Shown: positions 1,477 to 10,299 of the stretch, one piece after another
Layout: each line of letters opens with the position of its first letter
Position numbering within the stretch: the stretch's first letter is position 1
NCBI GenBank assembly: GCA_003345595.1
Contig: PRDI01000094.1
Coordinates: 1 to 10,299, forward strand
Direction: 5' to 3'
Length of the DNA: 10,299 bases
Source: Candidatus Thorarchaeota archaeon
GTDB taxonomy: Archaea; Asgardarchaeota; Thorarchaeia; Thorarchaeales; Thorarchaeaceae
The notes under the pieces: model-generated
What the model was told of the DNA's origin: nothing
Seen by the model: the letters and a program-made list of their open reading frames with translations, nothing else
Databases searched by the model: none
Position numbers and translations under genes: made by a program

Positions 1477-2085
1477 TTAAGGCCTTGTCAGTAGCTTCGT
1501 TATCTCCGCAATCCTTCTTCCGAAGTCCCTAGCTATCTTGCGCTCTACTTGGTCAACGGGACGCATACTTTCGGCTCCCGCCACAGCAGTGGGACCATAT
1601 GGGGTTCCGCCTGATTGGGTCGTGTCGACTTCTGGCGAAACATACCCTGCCGGCACAATGATCATTCCATGGTGCATCAGTGGAATCATCATAGTAATGA
1701 GAGTTGTTTCCTGGCCTCCGTGCATCGAGCTTGAGCCCGAGAACACTCCACCGACCTTATTGACCAGCTTGCCTTTAGCCCAGAGTGGACCAGTCTGATC
1801 GATGAAGTTCTTCATCTGGGCTGCCATGTTGCCGTATCTTGTCGGACTGCCAAATACAATGGCGTCATAGTCCGCAAGTTCAGCCACCTCGGCGACAGGT
1901 ACGTCCTTCTGAAGTTCCACGCCGGCTTTCAGTCTTGGCCTTGATTCTACTATAGAGGTTGGCACTAGTTCGGGAACCCGCTTTATCTTGACATCCGCCC
2001 CAACTTCCTTCGCACCTGCGGCTATCTCCTTTGCTAACTCGTACATGTGACCGAAGGTGCTGTAGTACACGATTAGCATTCTCAT
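1477..2085 (-). CDS. wrbA: NAD(P)H:quinone oxidoreductase, WrbA-type flavodoxin-like protein
   Basis: Signature motifs IVYYSTFGHM, KRVPELVP, ADYDAIVFGSPTRYGNMAAQMKNFIDQTG, HGGQETTL and GGTPYGPT; 202 aa. Confidence 0.95.
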   Translation of the reverse strand: MRMLIVYYSTFGHMYELAKEIAAGAKEVGADVKIKRVPELVPTSIVESRPRLKAGVELQKDVPVAEVAELADYDAIVFGSPTRYGNMAAQMKNFIDQTGPLWAKGKLVNKVGGVFSGSSSMHGGQETTLITMMIPLMHHGMIIVPAGYVSPEVDTTQSGGTPYGPTAVAGAESMRPVDQVERKIARDFGRRIAEITKLLTRP

Positions 2086-2108
2086 GACTTTAACGATTGT
2101 GAACCAAC

Positions 2109-2118
2109 CGTATAAGCA
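2109..2118 (-). promoter_or_regulatory. Putative TATA box of a leaderless wrbA transcript
   Basis: Minus-strand GCTTATAC is centred about 28 nt upstream of the ATG at 2085 and no SD precedes the ATG. This spacing fits archaeal leaderless mRNAs. Confidence 0.45.
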
Positions 2119-2157
2119 TTACGATTCTGACCTGAACGCTTGTGTTCTGAAGGCATC

Positions 2158-2973
2158 TCATAGTGCACTTGAGTTCGCCGGCGCACGAACTGAACGGTCG
2201 GTTGCCCTTCTCACCATCTTGATTGCCTGATTCTCACACACCGAGACGCACAGGCCACATCCAACGCATCTCTCGGGTTCATGCTTCATTGCTCCGTTCA
2301 AGACCGTTCTGGCCTTGAAGTGACATCGAGGGACGCATCTGCCGCAATCATTGCACTTCTCCCGATCGTGCTCCACTGTGAAGTTGCTTGCAAGGGCAGT
2401 ATTGCCCAGTCCATACTGTATCGCACTTCTAAGCATGACGCAGCAGCACGGGCAGCAGTTGCAGATCACATAGAAGTAGTCAGATGATGGAGCGGTTATT
2501 AGCTGATGAACGAGGCCAGCTCTGTCAGCACGAAGCACCAAATCCTCGATGTCATTAACTGTGGCTGATTTGACAGGCATTCTGGTTGAAAGCTCGGCGA
2601 GACTCTGGGCAGTCCCAGTGTGGATGCAGGTCCACACATCATTGTCACAGTTCTTGTGGGCACTTCTACAATAACAATACCCAATGGCTAGGGCGGGCAC
2701 TCTCCTTATGATGCTGAGAATCTCCTCAGTGGGCGACACAGTCGGGACTGCAGTGAGGCTCACGTTAAGTGGTATGACTCGACTCCCATAGACCCGAGTG
2801 ACTAGGCTCATCATATCCTCGAAGTAGTTGAGTCGGGTGTGGCGGTCAAGAAAACGGATCGTATCGAGGATTGGCACTTCAAGAAGGCCAAAAAGCGACG
2901 AGAACACCTTGCCTATGGGAGGGTAACGAAGGAGGAATCGGATGCGCATAGTGACGATGCGTGGAAGTGCCAT
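2158..2973 (-). CDS. Cys-rich iron-sulfur protein with a C-terminal 2x[4Fe-4S] ferredoxin domain
   Basis: Two CxxCxxCxxxC motifs (CNDCGRCVPRC, CVGCGLCVSVC), plus CYCR-x5-C-x6-C and GLVHQ...ICNCCPCCC; 18 Cys in total. Confidence 0.88.
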   Translation of the reverse strand: MALPRIVTMRIRFLLRYPPIGKVFSSLFGLLEVPILDTIRFLDRHTRLNYFEDMMSLVTRVYGSRVIPLNVSLTAVPTVSPTEEILSIIRRVPALAIGYCYCRSAHKNCDNDVWTCIHTGTAQSLAELSTRMPVKSATVNDIEDLVLRADRAGLVHQLITAPSSDYFYVICNCCPCCCVMLRSAIQYGLGNTALASNFTVEHDREKCNDCGRCVPRCHFKARTVLNGAMKHEPERCVGCGLCVSVCENQAIKMVRRATDRSVRAPANSSAL

Positions 2974-4419: not shown

Positions 4420-5592
4420 ATGCCGCTGAAAAAGACGTTCATAGTGAGCGGTGCTCAGACAAAGTTCGGAGCACTTGAAGGAGTCACTTTCCGGGAGATG
4501 CTTGCTGAGGCTGTTGACAAGGCCACGATTCAAGCAGGCGTACCCAAGAAGGAGATCCAAGCCGTTTTCTTGGGGACGTTCAATCCGGAAATGCTGATAC
4601 ATCAAGGGCATACAGCACCGTTGCTCCTTGACTATGCAGGTTTGAGAGGACTGCCCGCGACGCGACATGAAGCTGCGTGTGCGTCTGGTGCCGTGGCTCT
4701 GCGTGCAGGAATAATGGCCATTGAGTCCGGGCTTTATGATACTGTTCTGGTTGGAGGAGTCGAGAAGATGACTTCTGTATCGACGAACAAAGTCACCGAA
4801 GCTCTCGCTGCAGCGGCAGACGACGAGTTCGAGTCCGGTGTGGGTCTGACATTTCCCGGTGTTTTTGCATTGGCTGCAGTAGCTCACATGAACAGATATG
4901 GAACAACCCAAGAGGACATGGCTCTTGTTGCTGTAAAGGCACACAAGAACGCCGCGTCTAATCCGTTGGCACAGTTCCAAAAGGAGATTACTCTCGAGAA
5001 AGCGATGACCCCCAAGTTCGTTGCTTGGCCCCTGAAGCTATTCGACTGTTCTCCCATTTCTGATGGCGCCGCTGCGCTCGTACTCTCATCCGACAAGAAG
5101 GCGAAGCAGTACACTGACACGCCTGTGAAGATAGTTGGGTCCGGTCAGGCCTCAGCATCGATGAACCTCTCCGGTCGTTCGGACCTGACGTCGTTCGAGG
5201 CTTCCGTCGCAGCAAGCAGGTCTGCTTACAAGATGGCCAATCTCACGCCCAAGGACATTGATTTCGCTGTTGTGCATGACTGTTTCACCATCGCAGAAAT
5301 AATCGCAACAGAGGACATTGGGTTCTTCAAGCCAGGGGAGGGCGCAAAGGCAGTCCGGGAGGGAATAACCGCGAAAGACGGCGCCAAGCCCATCAATCCT
5401 ACTGGAGGTCTGAAGGCTGTGGGTCACCCTGTCGGAGCCACAGGAGTAAAGCAGGCTGTCGAGGTCTACAAGGAGCTGATAGGGGCTGCCGGCGCGAACC
5501 AGGTGCCAAAACACAATATCGGTCTGATGCACAACTTTGGTGGGACTGGAGCCACCTGTGTTGTCAATATCATGAGGAGGGCTGATGCATGA
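4420..5592 (+). CDS. Acetyl-CoA C-acyltransferase (archaeal/SCP2-type thiolase)
   Basis: Nucleophile motif EAACASG, plus GGVEKMT, DCSPISDGAAA, VHDCFT (SCP2-type), GHPVGATG and C-terminal HNFGG. Confidence 0.95.
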   Translation: MPLKKTFIVSGAQTKFGALEGVTFREMLAEAVDKATIQAGVPKKEIQAVFLGTFNPEMLIHQGHTAPLLLDYAGLRGLPATRHEAACASGAVALRAGIMAIESGLYDTVLVGGVEKMTSVSTNKVTEALAAAADDEFESGVGLTFPGVFALAAVAHMNRYGTTQEDMALVAVKAHKNAASNPLAQFQKEITLEKAMTPKFVAWPLKLFDCSPISDGAAALVLSSDKKAKQYTDTPVKIVGSGQASASMNLSGRSDLTSFEASVAASRSAYKMANLTPKDIDFAVVHDCFTIAEIIATEDIGFFKPGEGAKAVREGITAKDGAKPINPTGGLKAVGHPVGATGVKQAVEVYKELIGAAGANQVPKHNIGLMHNFGGTGATCVVNIMRRADA

Positions 5593-5978
5593 GCGAGCGA
5601 CCTACAGTTGAGGCCTACAAGAAGAACATTCAGGAGGGAAAGTTCAGAGCCCTCAAGTGTAGCAGCTGCGGGGCGGTAATAACCCCTCCATTGGGTACAT
5701 GCTACAATTGTGGTGGCAACAAGATGGAATGGACTAACGTCAGCGGAAAGGGAAAGCTCGTGTCGTTCACGGTGATCCACGTTGCTCCAGATGAGTTTGC
5801 CCCTGAGGTTCCCTACATCGTTGCCATAGTGGAGCTCGCTGAGAAGAGTCGGGTCACAGCTAGACTCGCCGGTTTCGATCCATTGAAGCCGGAAGCCATC
5901 AAGATCGGCATTCCGCTGGTGCTTGGCTACGAGAAAGGCAAGTCTGGGAAGAACTACCTATCTTTCAGACCCGCCTAA
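5589..5978 (+). CDS. DUF35-family Zn-ribbon/OB-fold protein (thiolase partner)
   Basis: CSSC-x10-CYNC rubredoxin-like ribbon followed by SGKGKLVSFTVIH...PYIVAIVELAE OB-fold. ATGA overlap (5589-5592) with the thiolase stop suggests translational coupling. Confidence 0.93.
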   Translation: MSERPTVEAYKKNIQEGKFRALKCSSCGAVITPPLGTCYNCGGNKMEWTNVSGKGKLVSFTVIHVAPDEFAPEVPYIVAIVELAEKSRVTARLAGFDPLKPEAIKIGIPLVLGYEKGKSGKNYLSFRPA

Positions 5979-6114
5979 ACGACTGCTAGAACGGTATGTC
6001 CCCTGAGGAGTCCTAGTGTTCAGTCATGTTCTGCCGCTGTAGACGAGGGTTGCCTCCATTAGATTGCGAAGACAACACATGAGAAACCGAAGGCGTTGGT
6101 GGATGCACCACACA

Positions 6115-6858
6115 TCAAGGGGGCGAAATCTCCTGGGGCGGTCTGTTGGCCTTGAGATTCGACCAGTCAACCCTGACCATCAGATACAGGATAACCACAA
6201 CGGCGAGGACAGTCAATACCTCGGCTGACTTGGAGACCCAGCTCGTTGGATTGATAGCATCTATCAGTTGCTGAATGAAGCCGAGGCCCGTCCTTCCAGC
6301 CCATGCAACCCCTGTGAGAAACATGCTTTTTCCAAGGAGCTGAAGGAGGAACACTTTCCACCATGGGTATCTAACAACCCCAAGTGGGACTATGAGCTCA
6401 TCGTCAGGCAGAGGGGTCACAGCAAGAAACCACAAGACCAACGGTGTCAGGCGTGGATGTTTCTCGATGAGTGACAGGAACCCACCTCTCCGACTCTCAT
6501 CGATAAAATGGCCTCCAGCCCGGCCAATTGCATACCCGGTCATCTCTCCAAGGGTCGCTCCTATTCCCGAGGCGATACCTACAACGAACGGATTGAACAT
6601 GAACTCATGAGTGATAGTGTCGGTCAAGCCTCCTAGCATGAATGGGACGGCAATGTACGGAAAGGGGATCAGAATCGTGGCATTGCCAATGAAGGAGATA
6701 AGGAACGAACCGGGGTAGCCCATGACTACCGACACCTGTTCCAACCATGCGTAGAGAAAGGTGATCGGACCTGAGAGTCCTGTGTAAAGGCTGACAACCA
6801 CCCAGTACGTGAGGAGAAGAGCTACCGAGATGACGAACAGCATATCCAATCTGCGCAT
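6115..6858 (-). CDS. DedA/VTT (SNARE-associated Golgi protein-like) membrane protein
   Basis: Several hydrophobic segments, DedA-type GATLGEMTGYAIGRAGG and TPLPDDELIVPLGVVRYPWWKVF...GK. Start uncertain: TTG 6882, ATG 6858 or ATG 6843. Confidence 0.85.
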   Translation of the reverse strand: MRRLDMLFVISVALLLTYWVVVSLYTGLSGPITFLYAWLEQVSVVMGYPGSFLISFIGNATILIPFPYIAVPFMLGGLTDTITHEFMFNPFVVGIASGIGATLGEMTGYAIGRAGGHFIDESRRGGFLSLIEKHPRLTPLVLWFLAVTPLPDDELIVPLGVVRYPWWKVFLLQLLGKSMFLTGVAWAGRTGLGFIQQLIDAINPTSWVSKSAEVLTVLAVVVILYLMVRVDWSNLKANRPPQEISPP

Positions 6859-6982
6859 TATGCTCTGGCCCGCAGAGCGCAATCTCTTTCAGTCATGATA
6901 TGAACGTTCCCGCTGCAGCTAGGGACAATCACTTCGCGTGACCGTGACTCGGAATGCAGTCGCTTGTGAGAGGCATAGAGAA

Positions 6983-8242
6983 ATGAGATACTCCTTCCGT
7001 TATGGAGCAGGTCGTATTGATATCGACGCAGATGCTTTCAATAGTGTGTTTGAGATATTGCCGAGGTCTGCGGCTGACCAATCTGACGTCTGGGGTACTA
7101 TCCTGAATGCGCTTGAGCATCCTATTGGGACGGATCCTCTTGCCAATTCCGTTTCTGACTCTTCGACAATCACGGTCGTCGTTGACAGGCCCACAGCAGC
7201 ATTCCCTGCGCGTGATGTCCTCGCCCCCGTCCTCTCAAGCCTGCAAGCACAAGCTCTAGATCCGGGCAATATCACAGTGCTGCTCACATCTCAGTATGAT
7301 TTGACCTGCACAAAGGATGAAGTCAACAGGCTTCTGGACGATCCGGTTTCGCAAGGATATCACTTATTGTTGCATGACCCGGCTGATGCGAGTAGGCTGC
7401 GGGAGGTTGGCAAGACACCGACGTCTCGAACGCCGCTGGAAGTGAACAAGAGCTTTCTAGACGCCGACTTCAAGATGGCCCTGAGCAGCATTAGGCCTGA
7501 TCCATTCGCTAGTGCAACTGGTGGCGGGATGTCAATACTGCCTGGATTATGCAGTCTAAGAGGTATGGTTCATCATATGCGAATGCGGGCTATGACCAAG
7601 AACCCTCCTCTCGCGGTGGACAGCCCTGCAAGTGTCGACATGAGCGAAGCGGCGCTTCTTGCCGGTCTCGACTTCGTCTTGAACACTGTCCCGGACTGGA
7701 GGGGTTCCCTTGCCGATGTTGTTGGTGGTAATCCAAAAGCGGCTTGGTCACGAGGTGTTGAGTCTTCAATGGCCTTGTCCTCCGCCACCATTCCAGGCAA
7801 GTTCGATCTGGTTGTCGTGAGTGCAGGTGGGTTTCCGTCCGACCTGACGCTGTATGGTGCTATTGACAGTCTCTATGCGGCACGAATAGCTTGTAGAAGA
7901 AACGGGGCAATACTTCTGGTTGCTGAGTGTAGTCAAGGTCTTGGTCCCAGCGGTTTTGCAGATTGTGTCACCAGCGCAAAATCCGAGAAAGAGGTGGCAT
8001 CTCTGATAGAGGACAGTTTCAGAACCGGCATGGAGAAAGCAAGACTCTTCTGGAGCGTCAATGAGTCAACGAATCTCATCCTGTGGTCGGAACTGCCGAA
8101 TTCTCTCGTGGCCAACAAGCTTCATTGCACTGGTGTGCAGGACTCTCAAGAGGCCACTGATGCGGCGCGAGCCATCCTGGGGACCGGTCCAAAGGCGGCA
8201 CTCGTTCCAGACGGCCGGGCGATAGTCTTGTCAGACGTCTAG
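6983..8242 (+). CDS. LarA (nickel-pincer lactate racemase, DUF2088) homologue with degenerate catalytic residues
   Basis: LarA scaffold motifs FRYG, ALEHPIGT, HDP, VGKT...TPLEVN, GG.xSILPG, LDFVLN, DLVVVSAGGFPSDLTLY and GAILLVAECSQGLG. ATG 6983 preceded by GAGG is preferred over GTG 6938. No gene symbol is given because the catalytic His/Lys positions are substituted. Confidence 0.85.
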   Translation: MRYSFRYGAGRIDIDADAFNSVFEILPRSAADQSDVWGTILNALEHPIGTDPLANSVSDSSTITVVVDRPTAAFPARDVLAPVLSSLQAQALDPGNITVLLTSQYDLTCTKDEVNRLLDDPVSQGYHLLLHDPADASRLREVGKTPTSRTPLEVNKSFLDADFKMALSSIRPDPFASATGGGMSILPGLCSLRGMVHHMRMRAMTKNPPLAVDSPASVDMSEAALLAGLDFVLNTVPDWRGSLADVVGGNPKAAWSRGVESSMALSSATIPGKFDLVVVSAGGFPSDLTLYGAIDSLYAARIACRRNGAILLVAECSQGLGPSGFADCVTSAKSEKEVASLIEDSFRTGMEKARLFWSVNESTNLILWSELPNSLVANKLHCTGVQDSQEATDAARAILGTGPKAALVPDGRAIVLSDV

Positions 8243-8517
8243 TGCTTTGCTGCGGTCTGCTTCTTCTTCGGTGCAGCGGCCTTTGCTGGCTTCTCGTCGA
8301 ACAGTGCGTCTACGGCCGATAGTGCGCCACTCTTTTCCTTCTCGGTGAACTGCTCTAGTTTGCCCGCTTTAGCTATCTTGACGGTCACGAGGGCATCGTC
8401 ATCCCTTGGCTCCATCACCCAAGAGATCTCGAGACCAGGTTTCTCGGACACAAACTGCTTCAACAGCTCAAGCCATGCCTTCTTGACATCGTCAATCTTG
8501 ACGTACAGAAACTCCAT
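8239..8517 (-). CDS. Small hypothetical protein (about 92 aa) with an alpha/beta core and a Lys/Ala-rich C-terminal tail
   Basis: ORF 8239..8589. The natural-looking part begins at ATG 8517 (MEFLYVKIDDVKKAWLELL...). Its TAG overlaps the LarA-like TAG in the tetranucleotide CTAG (8239-8242). Confidence 0.65.
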   Translation of the reverse strand: MEFLYVKIDDVKKAWLELLKQFVSEKPGLEISWVMEPRDDDALVTVKIAKAGKLEQFTEKEKSGALSAVDALFDEKPAKAAAPKKKQTAAKH

Positions 8518-8672
8518 GAGTGGAATGCTGACTTCTACGCAAAGGACCCCTGCGGACTTTATGTAGTAGTTCTCCACGTTCCAGTGCAATTCTGAGGACT
8601 CCTGATGGCCTGTGCCCGGCCGTACGTATGACTGATAAGTCTTGTTCAGTTTGCAAAAGACTACAGAGCCGG

Positions 8673-10299
8673 CTAGTCCTTGTCTCTCTCCTTTTCGTCT
8701 TTCGACAGGAGGTGCTCCACATCCTCTATGAACTTGTCAGCATCGTCAGCCGCAGGCTTCTTTTTTCCACGAGCCCGCTTCGCCTTGGGTTCGGCTTCTG
8801 TTGACAGCAGACGTTCGATGTCTGCGACGAACTGTTCCTCGGGCTTGGGCTTCTCAGCAGCTGCCGCAATCTCGGCCTCGGGTTGTTTTGGTTGCTCAAC
8901 AGAAGCAGGCTCCTCACTCGGAGTGATGCCTTCCACATATCGACTCAAGTCCGCCTCTGGATGAGGCGCCTCACGAATCTCTTCTTCGACTCTTTCCGGA
9001 GCATGCCCTTCGATGACAGACTCGTCCTCTGTGGTTGCCGGCTCGTACTCTTCTTCTGTGAAGGCCTCGATTTCTGGAGCTTTCTCTCCGGAGATGACCG
9101 ACTCTTCCCACTGCAGTGGCTCAGGCGTTGGCTTCTCGCCTTCTCTACCCTTCTCAGAAACCGATTCCTTGATTTCCTCGCTTGGGGCCGCTTCGTGACC
9201 CATTATGGGCTCAGGGGGGACTTCCTCCGTTTCAGTTTCGTTTCCAGGAAGGGCCATTCCTTGTCTCTGAAGTATGGTCTGGATGTTGATCGGAACAATG
9301 TAGCCCTTCTCCGCCATCATCAGAAGGCGATCCAATGCCTCGGCATCGGTCTTGCCAAACTGCTTGGCGACTTCATCGATAACGTCGCGTATGAAGAACT
9401 CGCCCTTTTCGTTGAGCTTCGTGCTGAGAAGGTTGAGTATCTTCTTTGAAGTACCATCCATTCTCTTCATGGTAGAAATCCTATGAGGTAGGACCCATCT
9501 GTAGTTGAACGCTGCGTTGAGATTGGACACGATCCACTCTGGGTCGAAGCAGTCGGTTTCGCCCTTCCAGTTCTTGAGGTGATCTTCGTACTTGCTCTCG
9601 AACACCTCAATGAAGTATTGCAGCCTCTCTTTGAGTAGCTGAGTCAGTTCGCCCTCTAGGATGAGGATACCGATTACATACTTGCCGCTGTAGCTGTTCA
9701 GTTTCAGTCCGTGGTAGTGGATTTCCTCGAGGGTCCCTTGGACTCCGTCACCCTTTAGCTCTCCGTATACGCTAGTGATTGCAGCGATGAAGCCACTGAT
9801 CAGGTCGGCCTGAATCCTTGCTTCTGCGAACGGATGATAGAAGACGCAGGTTCCACGACCGACATATACTGCGATGAAGTGCTTCAATGAGCCGAGGTCC
9901 TTGAAGGCCTGAAGCTGCTGCTCCATCGATAGTTTCGCTGCTCTTACCTTTGGCTTGTGGCTCTTGTTGTAGGCGGTTGTGGCCACGGCCGCGACTATTA
10001 CGGTGCCTAGCATCATGAGGCCCGGGGTGCTTGTCAGGAACAACAATAACTGAGCGAACAACGTGGGCGTGACTTCGAACCGTCTTGTTGAACTGGTGCT
10101 CCACCTGTTCAATGCTCCGGCATAGTTCGCCTCCACGTCAAGGTAGTCCACGCCAAGGGGAATTGGAAAGGCCCAGCTGGCCTCTCCTTCAGCGTTTGTA
10201 GGATACGAGTCTTCCGATAGCATCCTCGTTCCGTTCTCATACTCGATTGTCACTCTGAAGATGATATACGCTCCCGGAACTGGTGTGTCGGTGTCGTTC
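8673..10299 (-). CDS. Large single-pass membrane protein (5'-truncated by the window): Ig-like ectodomain, TM helix, longin-like domain, winged-helix-like domain, acidic disordered tail
   Basis: The frame stays open past GTG 10253 to the edge (NDTDTPVPGAYIIFRV-TIEYENG...). Beta-rich TNAEGEASWAF...VEANYAG segment; TM GLMMLGTVIVAAVATTAY followed by basic NKSHKPKVRAAK; longin-like HFIAVYVGRGTCVF...ADLISGFIAAITSV...LKERLQYFIEVFESKY; E/P-rich tail. Confidence 0.8.
   Translation of the reverse strand, partial: NDTDTPVPGAYIIFRVTIEYENGTRMLSEDSYPTNAEGEASWAFPIPLGVDYLDVEANYAGALNRWSTSSTRRFEVTPTLFAQLLLFLTSTPGLMMLGTVIVAAVATTAYNKSHKPKVRAAKLSMEQQLQAFKDLGSLKHFIAVYVGRGTCVFYHPFAEARIQADLISGFIAAITSVYGELKGDGVQGTLEEIHYHGLKLNSYSGKYVIGILILEGELTQLLKERLQYFIEVFESKYEDHLKNWKGETDCFDPEWIVSNLNAAFNYRWVLPHRISTMKRMDGTSKKILNLLSTKLNEKGEFFIRDVIDEVAKQFGKTDAEALDRLLMMAEKGYIVPINIQTILQRQGMALPGNETETEEVPPEPIMGHEAAPSEEIKESVSEKGREGEKPTPEPLQWEESVISGEKAPEIEAFTEEEYEPATTEDESVIEGHAPERVEEEIREAPHPEADLSRYVEGITPSEEPASVEQPKQPEAEIAAAAEKPKPEEQFVADIERLLSTEAEPKAKRARGKKKPAADDADKFIEDVEHLLSKDEKERDKD
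8703..8837 (-). repeat. Duplicated 12-aa amphipathic motif (EQFVADIERLLS / DKFIEDVEHLLS) in the C-terminal tail
   Basis: Copies at 8837-8802 and 8738-8703 share F-[VI]-x-D-[IV]-E-x-L-L-S and are separated by a basic linker (PKAKRARGKKKP). Confidence 0.75.

Follow-up and report, generated by a model that had tools for sequence, protein, structure and literature searches.

The window, that is the whole stretch of 10,299 nucleotides that we analysed, has a GC content of about 53% and derives from a 2.73-Mb MAG that is 83% complete. It contains a gene of the LarA fold that forms a transcription unit of its own, divergent from a DedA gene on one side and convergent with a small gene on the other, and that has no fused or operonic partner. 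The genes of the locus and the segments of the LarA-fold gene that correspond to the active site of canonical homologues are the following (changes are given from Lactiplantibacillus plantarum LarA to the protein of the window):

6115 to 6882, reverse strand: DedA/VTT-domain membrane protein, divergent neighbour and one conserved flank of the slot
6983 to 8242, forward strand: LarA-fold gene of 419 aa in which the NPN-binding and catalytic residues are replaced (seven of the eight in every alignment), as judged from Pfam, alignments and model
7184 to 7201, forward strand: DRPTAA, equivalent of SDxTRP (D72 to R69, R75 to A72), a loop unconstrained in the clade
7289 to 7306, forward strand: SQYDLT, equivalent of the H108 loop (H108 to D106), the most relaxed segment relative to canonical homologues
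7493 to 7546, forward strand: RPDPFASATGGGMSILPG, the former cofactor-tether loop (H174 to D173, K184 to M183), which houses the most conserved 9-mer of the clade (consensus GATGGRMSV, 0.92)
7565 to 7585, forward strand: MVHHMRM, which spans the site where the Ni ligand H200 formerly stood (M199, H198 or R200, depending on the alignment), with no clade-conserved His
7841 to 7873, forward strand: DLTLYGAIDSL, the former carboxylate-binding helix (Q295 to G292, which is Asp in most relatives; K298 to D295, a position that is Asp in 96% of the core clade)
8027 to 8050, forward strand: GMEKARLF, a motif peculiar to the clade in the segment that once formed the substrate lid (LarA_Lp 356-362), which reads GGHKA in canonical relatives
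8239 to 8589, reverse strand: small conserved protein of about 92-116 aa with a Lys-rich tail, convergent neighbour and the other conserved flank of the slot

The frame of the LarA-fold gene opens with an ATG at 6983, which is preceded by GAGAGG 9-14 nt to its 5′ side, and ends at 8242; a longer form starting from a GTG at 6938 is also possible. A first, sequence-only reading of this DNA had described a 419-aa frame free of interruptions, and indeed no stop codon occurs between 6983 and 8242. The same reading placed the protein at 7184-7867, a span that covers the first to the last of the motifs, whereas the gene itself runs from 6983 to 8242. Both Pfam domains of the family are found in the 419-aa protein above their gathering thresholds, namely Lar_N (PF09861; 93.1 bits, E 1.7e-26, cut-off 23.3) and LarA_C (PF21113; 56.4 bits, E 4.4e-15, cut-off 25). 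The protein is thus a member of the LarA superfamily, with the two-domain fold at full length. The whole gene is also present in an independent wetland assembly from 2022, from which it differs by three synonymous changes (at T147, C304 and R354) and by no non-synonymous one. The sequencing runs listed as containing the gene include none of RNA.

The residues of LarA on which NPN chemistry depends have the following roles: K184 tethers NPN, R75 binds the phosphate, H200 is the fourth Ni ligand, and H108 and H174 form the acid/base pair (PMC11770544). We called the equivalent residues from HMMER pairwise alignments to Mar2 (6D6Z) and LarA_Tt (2YJG) and from MAFFT alignments of 14, 163 and 204 sequences. 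Seven replacements agree between the two approaches, namely D72 to R69, R75 to A72, H108 to D106, H174 to D173, K184 to M183, Q295 to G292 and K298 to D295, and these are the same seven substitutions that had been read by eye from the sequence. The tether lysine is Met183 in every alignment, and Met occupies this position in 93% of the core clade. The residues that would contact the phosphate and ribose of the cofactor, Arg75 and Asp72, are represented by A72 and R69, in columns where the most frequent residue reaches only 0.36-0.39 in the clade, compared with 1.00 in canonical sequences. Both catalytic histidines, His108 and His174, have given way to aspartates (D106 and D173), and the pair that binds the substrate carboxylate, Gln295 and Lys298, to G292 and D295, the latter position being Asp in 96% of the core clade. 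Meanwhile, the equivalent of H200 shifts by one residue with the alignment, being M199 by MAFFT, H198 by HMMER against Mar2 and R200 by HMMER against 2YJG. The earlier reading of this site as HHM, with Met as the equivalent, therefore agrees with MAFFT but is ambiguous by one residue. Besides the protein of the window, only its 80% relative has the pair of histidines, and a 73% relative has a single one of them. The remaining members of the clade have R-S/N/T instead and columns 198 and 199 hold no conserved His, indicating that no conserved Ni ligand is left.

Despite these replacements, an AlphaFold2 model of the 419-aa protein, built from a 106-row alignment, reached a pLDDT of 96.4 and a pTM of 0.93. 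Foldseek superposed it on L. plantarum LarA (5HUQ_A) with a TM-score of 0.90 and an rmsd of 2.7 Å over about 428 columns, and on 2YJG with a TM-score of 0.89. The LarA scaffold of the Thorarchaeia protein is thus predicted to be intact, which is in line with the scaffold motifs that had been recognised from the sequence. As for the geometry and electrostatics of the cleft, we infer them from homology.

The loss of the canonical residues extends far beyond this one protein. We scored 204 homologues, drawn from a search of 5.8 billion proteins, a search of 1.84 billion representatives and species genomes, at the eight canonical positions. All eight residues were present in 123 of them, and none or one in 63, a distribution so sharply divided that the dead-site pattern is not due to chance. 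About 60 sequence clusters with 0-3 of the eight residues (mostly 0-1) make up a single clade. A FastTree phylogeny of 193 rows placed 60 of the 61 degenerate rows on one side of a branch, and IQ-TREE (LG+C20, 60 rows) recovered all 25 degenerate rows as one clade with an SH-aLRT of 100. The substitutions noted in the window are therefore the property of a monophyletic group. Those members of the clade that carry names are all from Thorarchaeota, Promethearchaeota or Hodarchaeota, mostly the first, and in databases they are labelled "lactate racemase domain-containing protein", "nickel-dependent lactate racemase" or "DUF2088". In whole-genome searches, with degenerate orthologues defined as matches of at least 230 bits against the clade profile, such genes were confined to the GTDB family of the window, in about 50 of its 79 other sampled genomes, and the hits fetched from eleven other Asgard families were all canonical. 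A search of the ESM Atlas matched generic bacterial LarA clusters only.

The arrangement of the locus provided insights into the origin of the dead-site gene. Eighteen Thorarchaeota loci share the order DedA (reverse), LarA-like gene (forward), small protein (reverse) and a protein of about 1500 aa (reverse), with a thiolase and DUF35, and an acyl-CoA dehydrogenase, farther upstream. Even the most divergent degenerate forms, at 25-30% identity to the protein of the window, all lie between DedA and the small gene. The arrangement recurs in G025, which is the single genome sampled from the sister family within the same taxonomic order and in which a canonical LarAH on the forward strand is flanked by DedA and the small gene, both on the reverse strand. 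This LarAH keeps all eight residues, as seen in its motifs DDNTRG, GDHR, TIHYYAGFGGGRKS, NH, YQAYKAL and GGHKA. Against the NCBIfam model of malate racemases of the LarAH6 family (NF052593, cut-off 500), it scores 488.2 bits and the protein of the window 250.7 bits. Since a canonical gene fills the same slot in the sister family, the degenerate form arose in place, and the dead-site gene is the positional descendant of a gene for a malate-racemase-type (LarAH6-like) NPN enzyme. A free IQ-TREE search set the degenerate clade apart from all canonical sequences on a long branch, which could be read as a sign of an ancient origin. We rejected this possibility because a tree in which the clade was constrained to group with 16 canonical Asgard rows, including the G025 orthologue, was not rejected (p-AU 0.73) and surpassed the result of the quick unconstrained search by 11 lnL units, and because synteny identifies the orthologue.

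We also considered the neighbouring genes as clues to function. No significant Pfam family was detected in the small flanking protein, in the surface-like protein of about 1500 aa or in an ORF of 186 aa. The order of the block goes back to the canonical ancestor and is still seen in genomes from which the LarA-like gene has been deleted, and the gene makes up a transcription unit by itself, so that its neighbours are uninformative about a new role and were set aside.

The same applies to the pathway of NPN synthesis. The Pfam scan detected no larB, larC or larE within the window, as the sequence-only reading had stated. Elsewhere in the same genome, we found two further LarA homologues (contigs C95 and C92), both of which keep H108, H174, K184 and H200, as well as LarC. 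A check of the genome for larBCE and a canonical larA, which that reading had proposed, was thus answered in part: the canonical homologues and LarC are there, while searches for LarE and for any gene with an AIRC domain (LarB or PurE) gave no hit in this 83% complete genome, nor in two other genomes of the same genus (85% and 93% complete) or in G005. Across the GTDB family of the window, however, LarC is present in 23 of 25 genomes, LarE in 21 of 25 and AIRC genes in 22 of 25. The absence of the NPN pathway was hence rejected as an argument, since LarC, LarE and LarB-like AIRC genes occur in most genomes of the family and those of the genus and G005, in which LarE and AIRC were not found, are MAGs of 83-93% completeness. 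This pathway serves the canonical paralogues and has no bearing on the dead-site protein.

The dN/dS ratio (NG86) between the gene of the window and that of its 80% relative (L008; dS 0.47) is 0.23, and four other unsaturated pairs gave 0.10-0.19, for an overall range of 0.10-0.24. Ratios for the neighbours were 0.05 for the thiolase and DUF35, 0.04-0.10 for the small flanking gene and 0.05-0.17 for DedA. Across Thorarchaeota, identity of the LarA-like protein is 35-48%, as opposed to 78-92% for the thiolase, the acyl-CoA dehydrogenase and the nitroreductase. The gene is, jointly with one unknown ORF, the fastest-evolving of the syntenic block, at 2-5 times the rate of the neighbouring enzymes. 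Selection on it is purifying but relaxed. Frames of 405-440 aa remain open in dozens of genomes, with sequence identity down to 25-40%. On the other hand, the gene has been cleanly deleted in at least four relatives (G006, G007, G018 and G022), where little or nothing separates the two flanking genes and no remnants were found by tblastn (E up to 10). It is also broken in two others, by an in-frame TGA in G003/L009 (333 + 140 aa) and by truncation to 349 aa in G010. Because of these deletions and breaks it must be regarded as dispensable: the gene is functional but weakly constrained. The view that it is a pseudogene was rejected given the open 419-aa frame, the same protein in an independent assembly and the ratio of 0.23 against L008. 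The first reading, too, had judged that this is no decaying pseudogene, and dN/dS values of 0.10-0.24 are not those of neutral decay.

Conservation within the clade is distributed unevenly over the old active site. Through a collinear canonical sequence, offset by four residues from L. plantarum, we transferred the active-site signature of Desguin et al. 2020 to the protein of the window, and 19 of its 20 positions map. In the core clade of 28 sequences, conservation averages 0.73 at these 19 positions and 0.61 over the protein as a whole, a difference with a permutation P of 0.018. Four of them, positions 69, 72, 106 and 199, which correspond to D72, R75, H108 and H200, are unconstrained (0.29-0.39), and by comparison with canonical homologues, constraint has slackened most in the H108 loop and the D72/R75 loop. 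Other positions are fixed in the core clade: D173 (0.75, otherwise Asn), F175, M183 (0.93), Y291, D292 (0.75), D295 (0.96), E347, G349, E351, K352 and A353. The three most conserved 9-mers are GATGGRMSV (177-185) in the tether loop, GMEKARFFW (349-357) in the substrate lid and TLYDAIDSL (289-297) in the carboxylate-binding helix. Since the positions of D72, R75, H108 and H200 vary while the other loops are fixed, the nucleotide-binding half of the old site has dissolved, and acidic and Met residues have become fixed in the other half. In the wide family none of the new residues is invariant (D173 54%, M183 56%, D295 70%, E351 79%). The protein of the window itself departs from the core clade at G292 (Asp in the core) and R347 (Glu in the core), and with these replacements the acidic site is eroded in its lineage. 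These patterns also refine the earlier remark that three His/Lys to Asp changes stand out: D173 (75%, otherwise Asn) and D295 (96%) are kept in the clade, while the column of D106 is unconstrained.

These findings show that in the ancestor of one Thorarchaeia GTDB family a malate-racemase-type gene lost the tether K184, the phosphate and ribose contacts D72 and R75, a conserved Ni ligand at H200, the catalytic H108 and H174 and the carboxylate-binding Q295 and K298, and that it kept its fold. The gene has stayed under purifying but relaxed selection, has changed several times faster than its flanks, and was later deleted or broken in some lineages. Its protein would have ceased to bind NPN and to racemise 2-hydroxy acids. 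The part of the inter-domain cleft in which conservation is still strong consists of the F-x-G-x-T-G-G-x-M-S tether loop, the T-L-Y-D-A-x-D-x-L helix and the G-M-E-K-x-R lid, with Asp, Glu and Met in the place of Lys, His and Gln. This re-fixed cleft is a putative site for a different, non-anionic ligand, such as a cation, a metal or an amine-bearing metabolite, and the protein may act as a binding or regulatory pseudoenzyme rather than as a precise new catalyst. Taken as a whole, this account, a positional descendant with an intact fold that is now independent of NPN and is a putative non-anionic ligand-binding or regulatory pseudoenzyme, is in our judgement probable. Stated in its broadest form, the protein is most likely an NPN-independent ligand-binding protein or pseudoenzyme. 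The sequence-only reading had suggested a pseudo-enzyme, a binding or regulatory subunit or an NPN-independent enzyme, and the existence of the clade, the dN/dS of 0.10-0.24 and the intact fold lend support to these three options taken together. In a more specific version, conserved carboxylates and methionines (D173, M183, D292, D295, M350 and E351) now line the old cleft, which would bind a metal ion or cationic metabolite and confer a defined new catalytic or regulatory function; this is a tentative proposal that we consider rather unlikely.

Several other explanations deserve consideration. The protein could be a new NPN-independent enzyme, whose old cleft would catalyse a different reaction at a divalent-metal or acid/base site built from an acidic cluster of the clade consensus (D173, D292, D295, E347 and E351) plus K352 and R354. 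Such an enzyme would be expected to show purifying selection, as is the case, and the loops of the old active site are indeed the most conserved parts of the protein, with D295, E351, K352 and G349 conserved at 93-100% in the core clade. However, no new constellation is invariant across the wide family, the lineage of the window lacks two of the acidic residues (G292 and R347), no pathway partners share an operon with it, and the gene changes 2-5 times faster than the neighbouring enzymes and has been lost repeatedly. We consider this explanation rather unlikely. We lean towards a non-catalytic or loosely constrained role, because the gene evolves fast, has been lost repeatedly and shows no new constellation that is invariant. 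Points that weigh against the main reading itself are that the conserved Gly-rich loops may be kept for folding only, that the gene is dispensable, that no new residue set is invariant in the wide family and that the acidic site is eroded in the lineage of the window.

Alternatively, the pseudoenzyme could lack a small-molecule ligand and owe its retention to a protein partner, such as a canonical LarA homologue or a component of the envelope. Oligomers are formed by some LarA homologues (PMC12611868), the genome does encode LarC as well as two canonical LarA homologues, and both the complete loss of catalytic and cofactor residues and the relaxed constraint on a dispensable gene fit a structural role. 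Nevertheless, conservation is strongest on the loops of the cleft instead of being spread over the surface, no pattern of co-occurrence links the protein to any type of paralogue, and there is no fused or operonic partner, all of which make this explanation improbable. A slowly decaying relic with no present function would account for a gene that is the fastest of its syntenic block (with one unknown ORF), is deleted in G006, G007, G018 and G022, is broken in G003 (in-frame TGA) and G010 (truncated), and shows, in the protein of the window, changes specific to its lineage at clade-conserved pocket positions. Yet this is very hard to reconcile with frames of 405-440 aa that stay open in dozens of genomes at 25-40% identity, with dN/dS of 0.10-0.24 in five independent pairs and three synonymous against no non-synonymous differences between samples, or with the pLDDT of 96 and the conservation of the loops. 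Finally, although H198 takes the Ni-ligand position in one alignment and the genome holds LarC and canonical LarA homologues, we give hardly any credence to a still NPN-dependent isomerase that retains its cofactor non-covalently through other residues, e.g., H197/H198, given that of the eight defining residues seven have been replaced and the last varies even between close relatives, that the phosphate-binding loop drifts freely, that the carboxylate-binding residues are charge-reversed, and that LarE and LarB-type genes were not found in three genomes of the genus (83-93% complete).

The preferred reading, a ligand-binding or regulatory pseudoenzyme descended in place from a racemase, has implications for the annotation of Asgard genomes. 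Asgard archaea are the archaeal group in which larA homologues have been reported most often, in 87.5% of species (PMC11770544). The label "nickel-dependent lactate racemase" is wrong for the clade described here, and its use swells the counts of NPN enzymes in these archaea. The slot between DedA and the small gene also constitutes an unusually clean natural experiment: one family has the canonical enzyme there, and its sister family either has cofactor-less descendants, of which there are dozens at 25-80% identity to the protein of the window, or has nothing in the slot. The order in which residues were lost, the change in constraint and the fate of a dead enzyme can all be read from it. Binding of a ligand in the conserved acidic cleft, if it occurs, would provide a first function among the cofactor-less LarA groups that were set aside in 2020. 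Should the re-lined cleft have acquired a new function, the locus would document how a malate racemase gave rise in place to a new function, in the archaeal lineage that is closest to eukaryotes, and the LarA fold would have been re-used in Thorarchaeia for chemistry or sensing that is independent of the nickel pincer.

Among characterised proteins, the closest match in sequence with a solved structure is the malate racemase Mar2 of the LarAH6 type (6D6Z and 7S91; NF052593; PMC7583248), at E 5.5e-43 for 6D6Z, and NF052593 is also the best NCBIfam model. Mar2 shares the two-domain fold with our protein over the full length, and the positional orthologue in G025 is of the Mar2/LarAH6 type. Unlike Mar2, the protein of the window has none of the catalytic His pair, the tether Lys, the phosphate Arg and Asp or the carboxylate Gln and Lys, nor a conserved His as Ni ligand, and GMEKAR has taken the place of the GGHKA lid. 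The LarA apoprotein 2YJG (LarA_Tt) is matched by HMMER at E 7.9e-37. L. plantarum LarA (5HUQ and 6C1W) has the same fold at 22% identity (5HUQ E 1.5e-26), but in the MAFFT alignments our protein keeps none of the residues that define its NPN mechanism (roles as in PMC11770544). Meanwhile, the single-histidine LarA-like enzymes (9Q2U, 9Q3J and 9Q3K; PMC12611868) resemble part of the Thorarchaeia clade in having Asn at the position of H174. In contrast to our protein, they bind NPN, keep K184, H200 and H108, and are octameric with chains of about 500 aa, and their match to it is weak (E 7.5e-5 to 3.2e-4, TM 0.74-0.78).

Cofactor-less members of the superfamily have been noted before. In their survey, Desguin et al. 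2020 (PMC7583248) set aside three LarAH groups that do not conserve the catalytic and NPN-binding residues, namely 12 (Nitrososphaeria), 13 (Planctomycetes) and 16 (Frankia and other Actinobacteria), and found LarAH12 inactive on every substrate tested. Later papers on the superfamily treat NPN-binding members only (PMC11770544, PMC12611868), and our full-text literature search found no paper on a cofactor-less LarA in Asgard archaea or Thorarchaeota. The kind is thus already known as an observation, and the Asgard lineage and its in-place origin have, as far as we could find, not been described. Like groups 12, 13 and 16, the Asgard clade has no conserved catalytic and NPN residues, with 0-1 of eight in 63 sequences, and entries of groups 12 and 13 share with the protein of the window an Asp at the position of H174 (PMC7583248). 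The Asgard clade nonetheless keeps the GG, P-x-D and AEC scaffold motifs, which group 12 has largely lost (judged by eye in the supplement of that study), and the three groups come from other taxa, whereas the clade described here is Asgard-only. Since it is restricted to Asgard archaea and arose in place from an Asgard gene of the malate-racemase type, this clade most likely represents an independent loss, and both its taxonomy and its origin within an inherited slot favour a lineage separate from groups 12, 13 and 16.

The LarA slot, which lies between the DedA gene and a small gene, is bounded on its downstream side by two genes of constant placement.

Window 8239-8589, reverse strand: small protein, probable start at the ATG at 8517
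Window 8673-10299, reverse strand: protein of about 1500 residues, extending past the window end
L008 (locus of the closest relative) 4515-8999: the same large protein at full length, 1494 aa

Counted from that ATG, the small protein has about 92 residues and ends in a tail rich in Lys and Ala; it matches no Pfam family. Its identity is 55-67% across the window's GTDB family and 91% to the closest relative, and dN/dS of the gene is low (0.04-0.10). Its position is invariant, with the LarA slot on one side and the large surface-like protein on the other, and its stop-codon end overlaps that of the convergent LarA-like gene by 4 bases. The large protein is likewise conserved in position, adjoining the LarA locus in all Thorarchaeota loci, and in some genomes it occurs as two tandem copies. 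It displays faint matches to Ig-like and CarboxypepD_reg domains and nothing else, and evolves fast (49-63% identity, the closest relative excepted). It is probably a cell-surface protein.

At locus L009, from a long-contig MAG (G003), the degenerate LarA-like gene is itself split.

L009 8001-9261 (G003:C4:133471-134725): degenerate LarA-like gene with an in-frame TGA

The TGA divides the gene into parts of 333 and 140 aa. It is either genuine, the result of a nonsense mutation, or an artefact of sequencing.

Elsewhere in the window, two further gene pairs were compared among the Thorarchaeota loci.

Window 4420-5978, forward strand: thiolase (390 aa), then an OB-fold zinc-ribbon protein of the DUF35/ChsH2 type (129 aa)
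Window 1477-2973, reverse strand: flavodoxin-like FMN reductase (202 aa); ferredoxin-domain protein (271 aa)

The thiolase stop codon overlaps the DUF35 start codon, and no HMG-CoA synthase is adjacent to this pair. In most relatives, DUF35 is followed by an ORF of 320-360 aa without a Pfam family, which is absent from the window, L008 and L009. The second pair is inserted between a 186-aa ORF, which adjoins the nitroreductase, and the acyl-CoA dehydrogenase. Among the other loci compared, the FMN reductase gene has a counterpart only in L009, and the ferredoxin-domain gene, whose product carries a 2x[4Fe-4S] domain at its C-terminal end, has none.

Most of the family encodes both an AIRC-domain protein (PurE or LarB type) and LarE. 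Neither an AIRC-domain gene nor LarE above the cut-off was found in the three MAGs of the window's genus (G000, G001 and G002; 83, 85 and 93% complete) or in G005 (92%). Either these MAGs share an assembly gap, or the genus lacks the usual route for making NPN (or purines). LarC is retained in G000 and G001, and canonical LarA homologues are retained in G000, the window's own genome.

L002 1480-2772 (G000:C92): canonical LarA homologue

In L. plantarum numbering, this homologue keeps H108, H174, K184 and H200, and displays His at the Q295 position and Arg at the K298 position (LYHAQRAI), a variant signature that marks a paralogue type conserved throughout the family.
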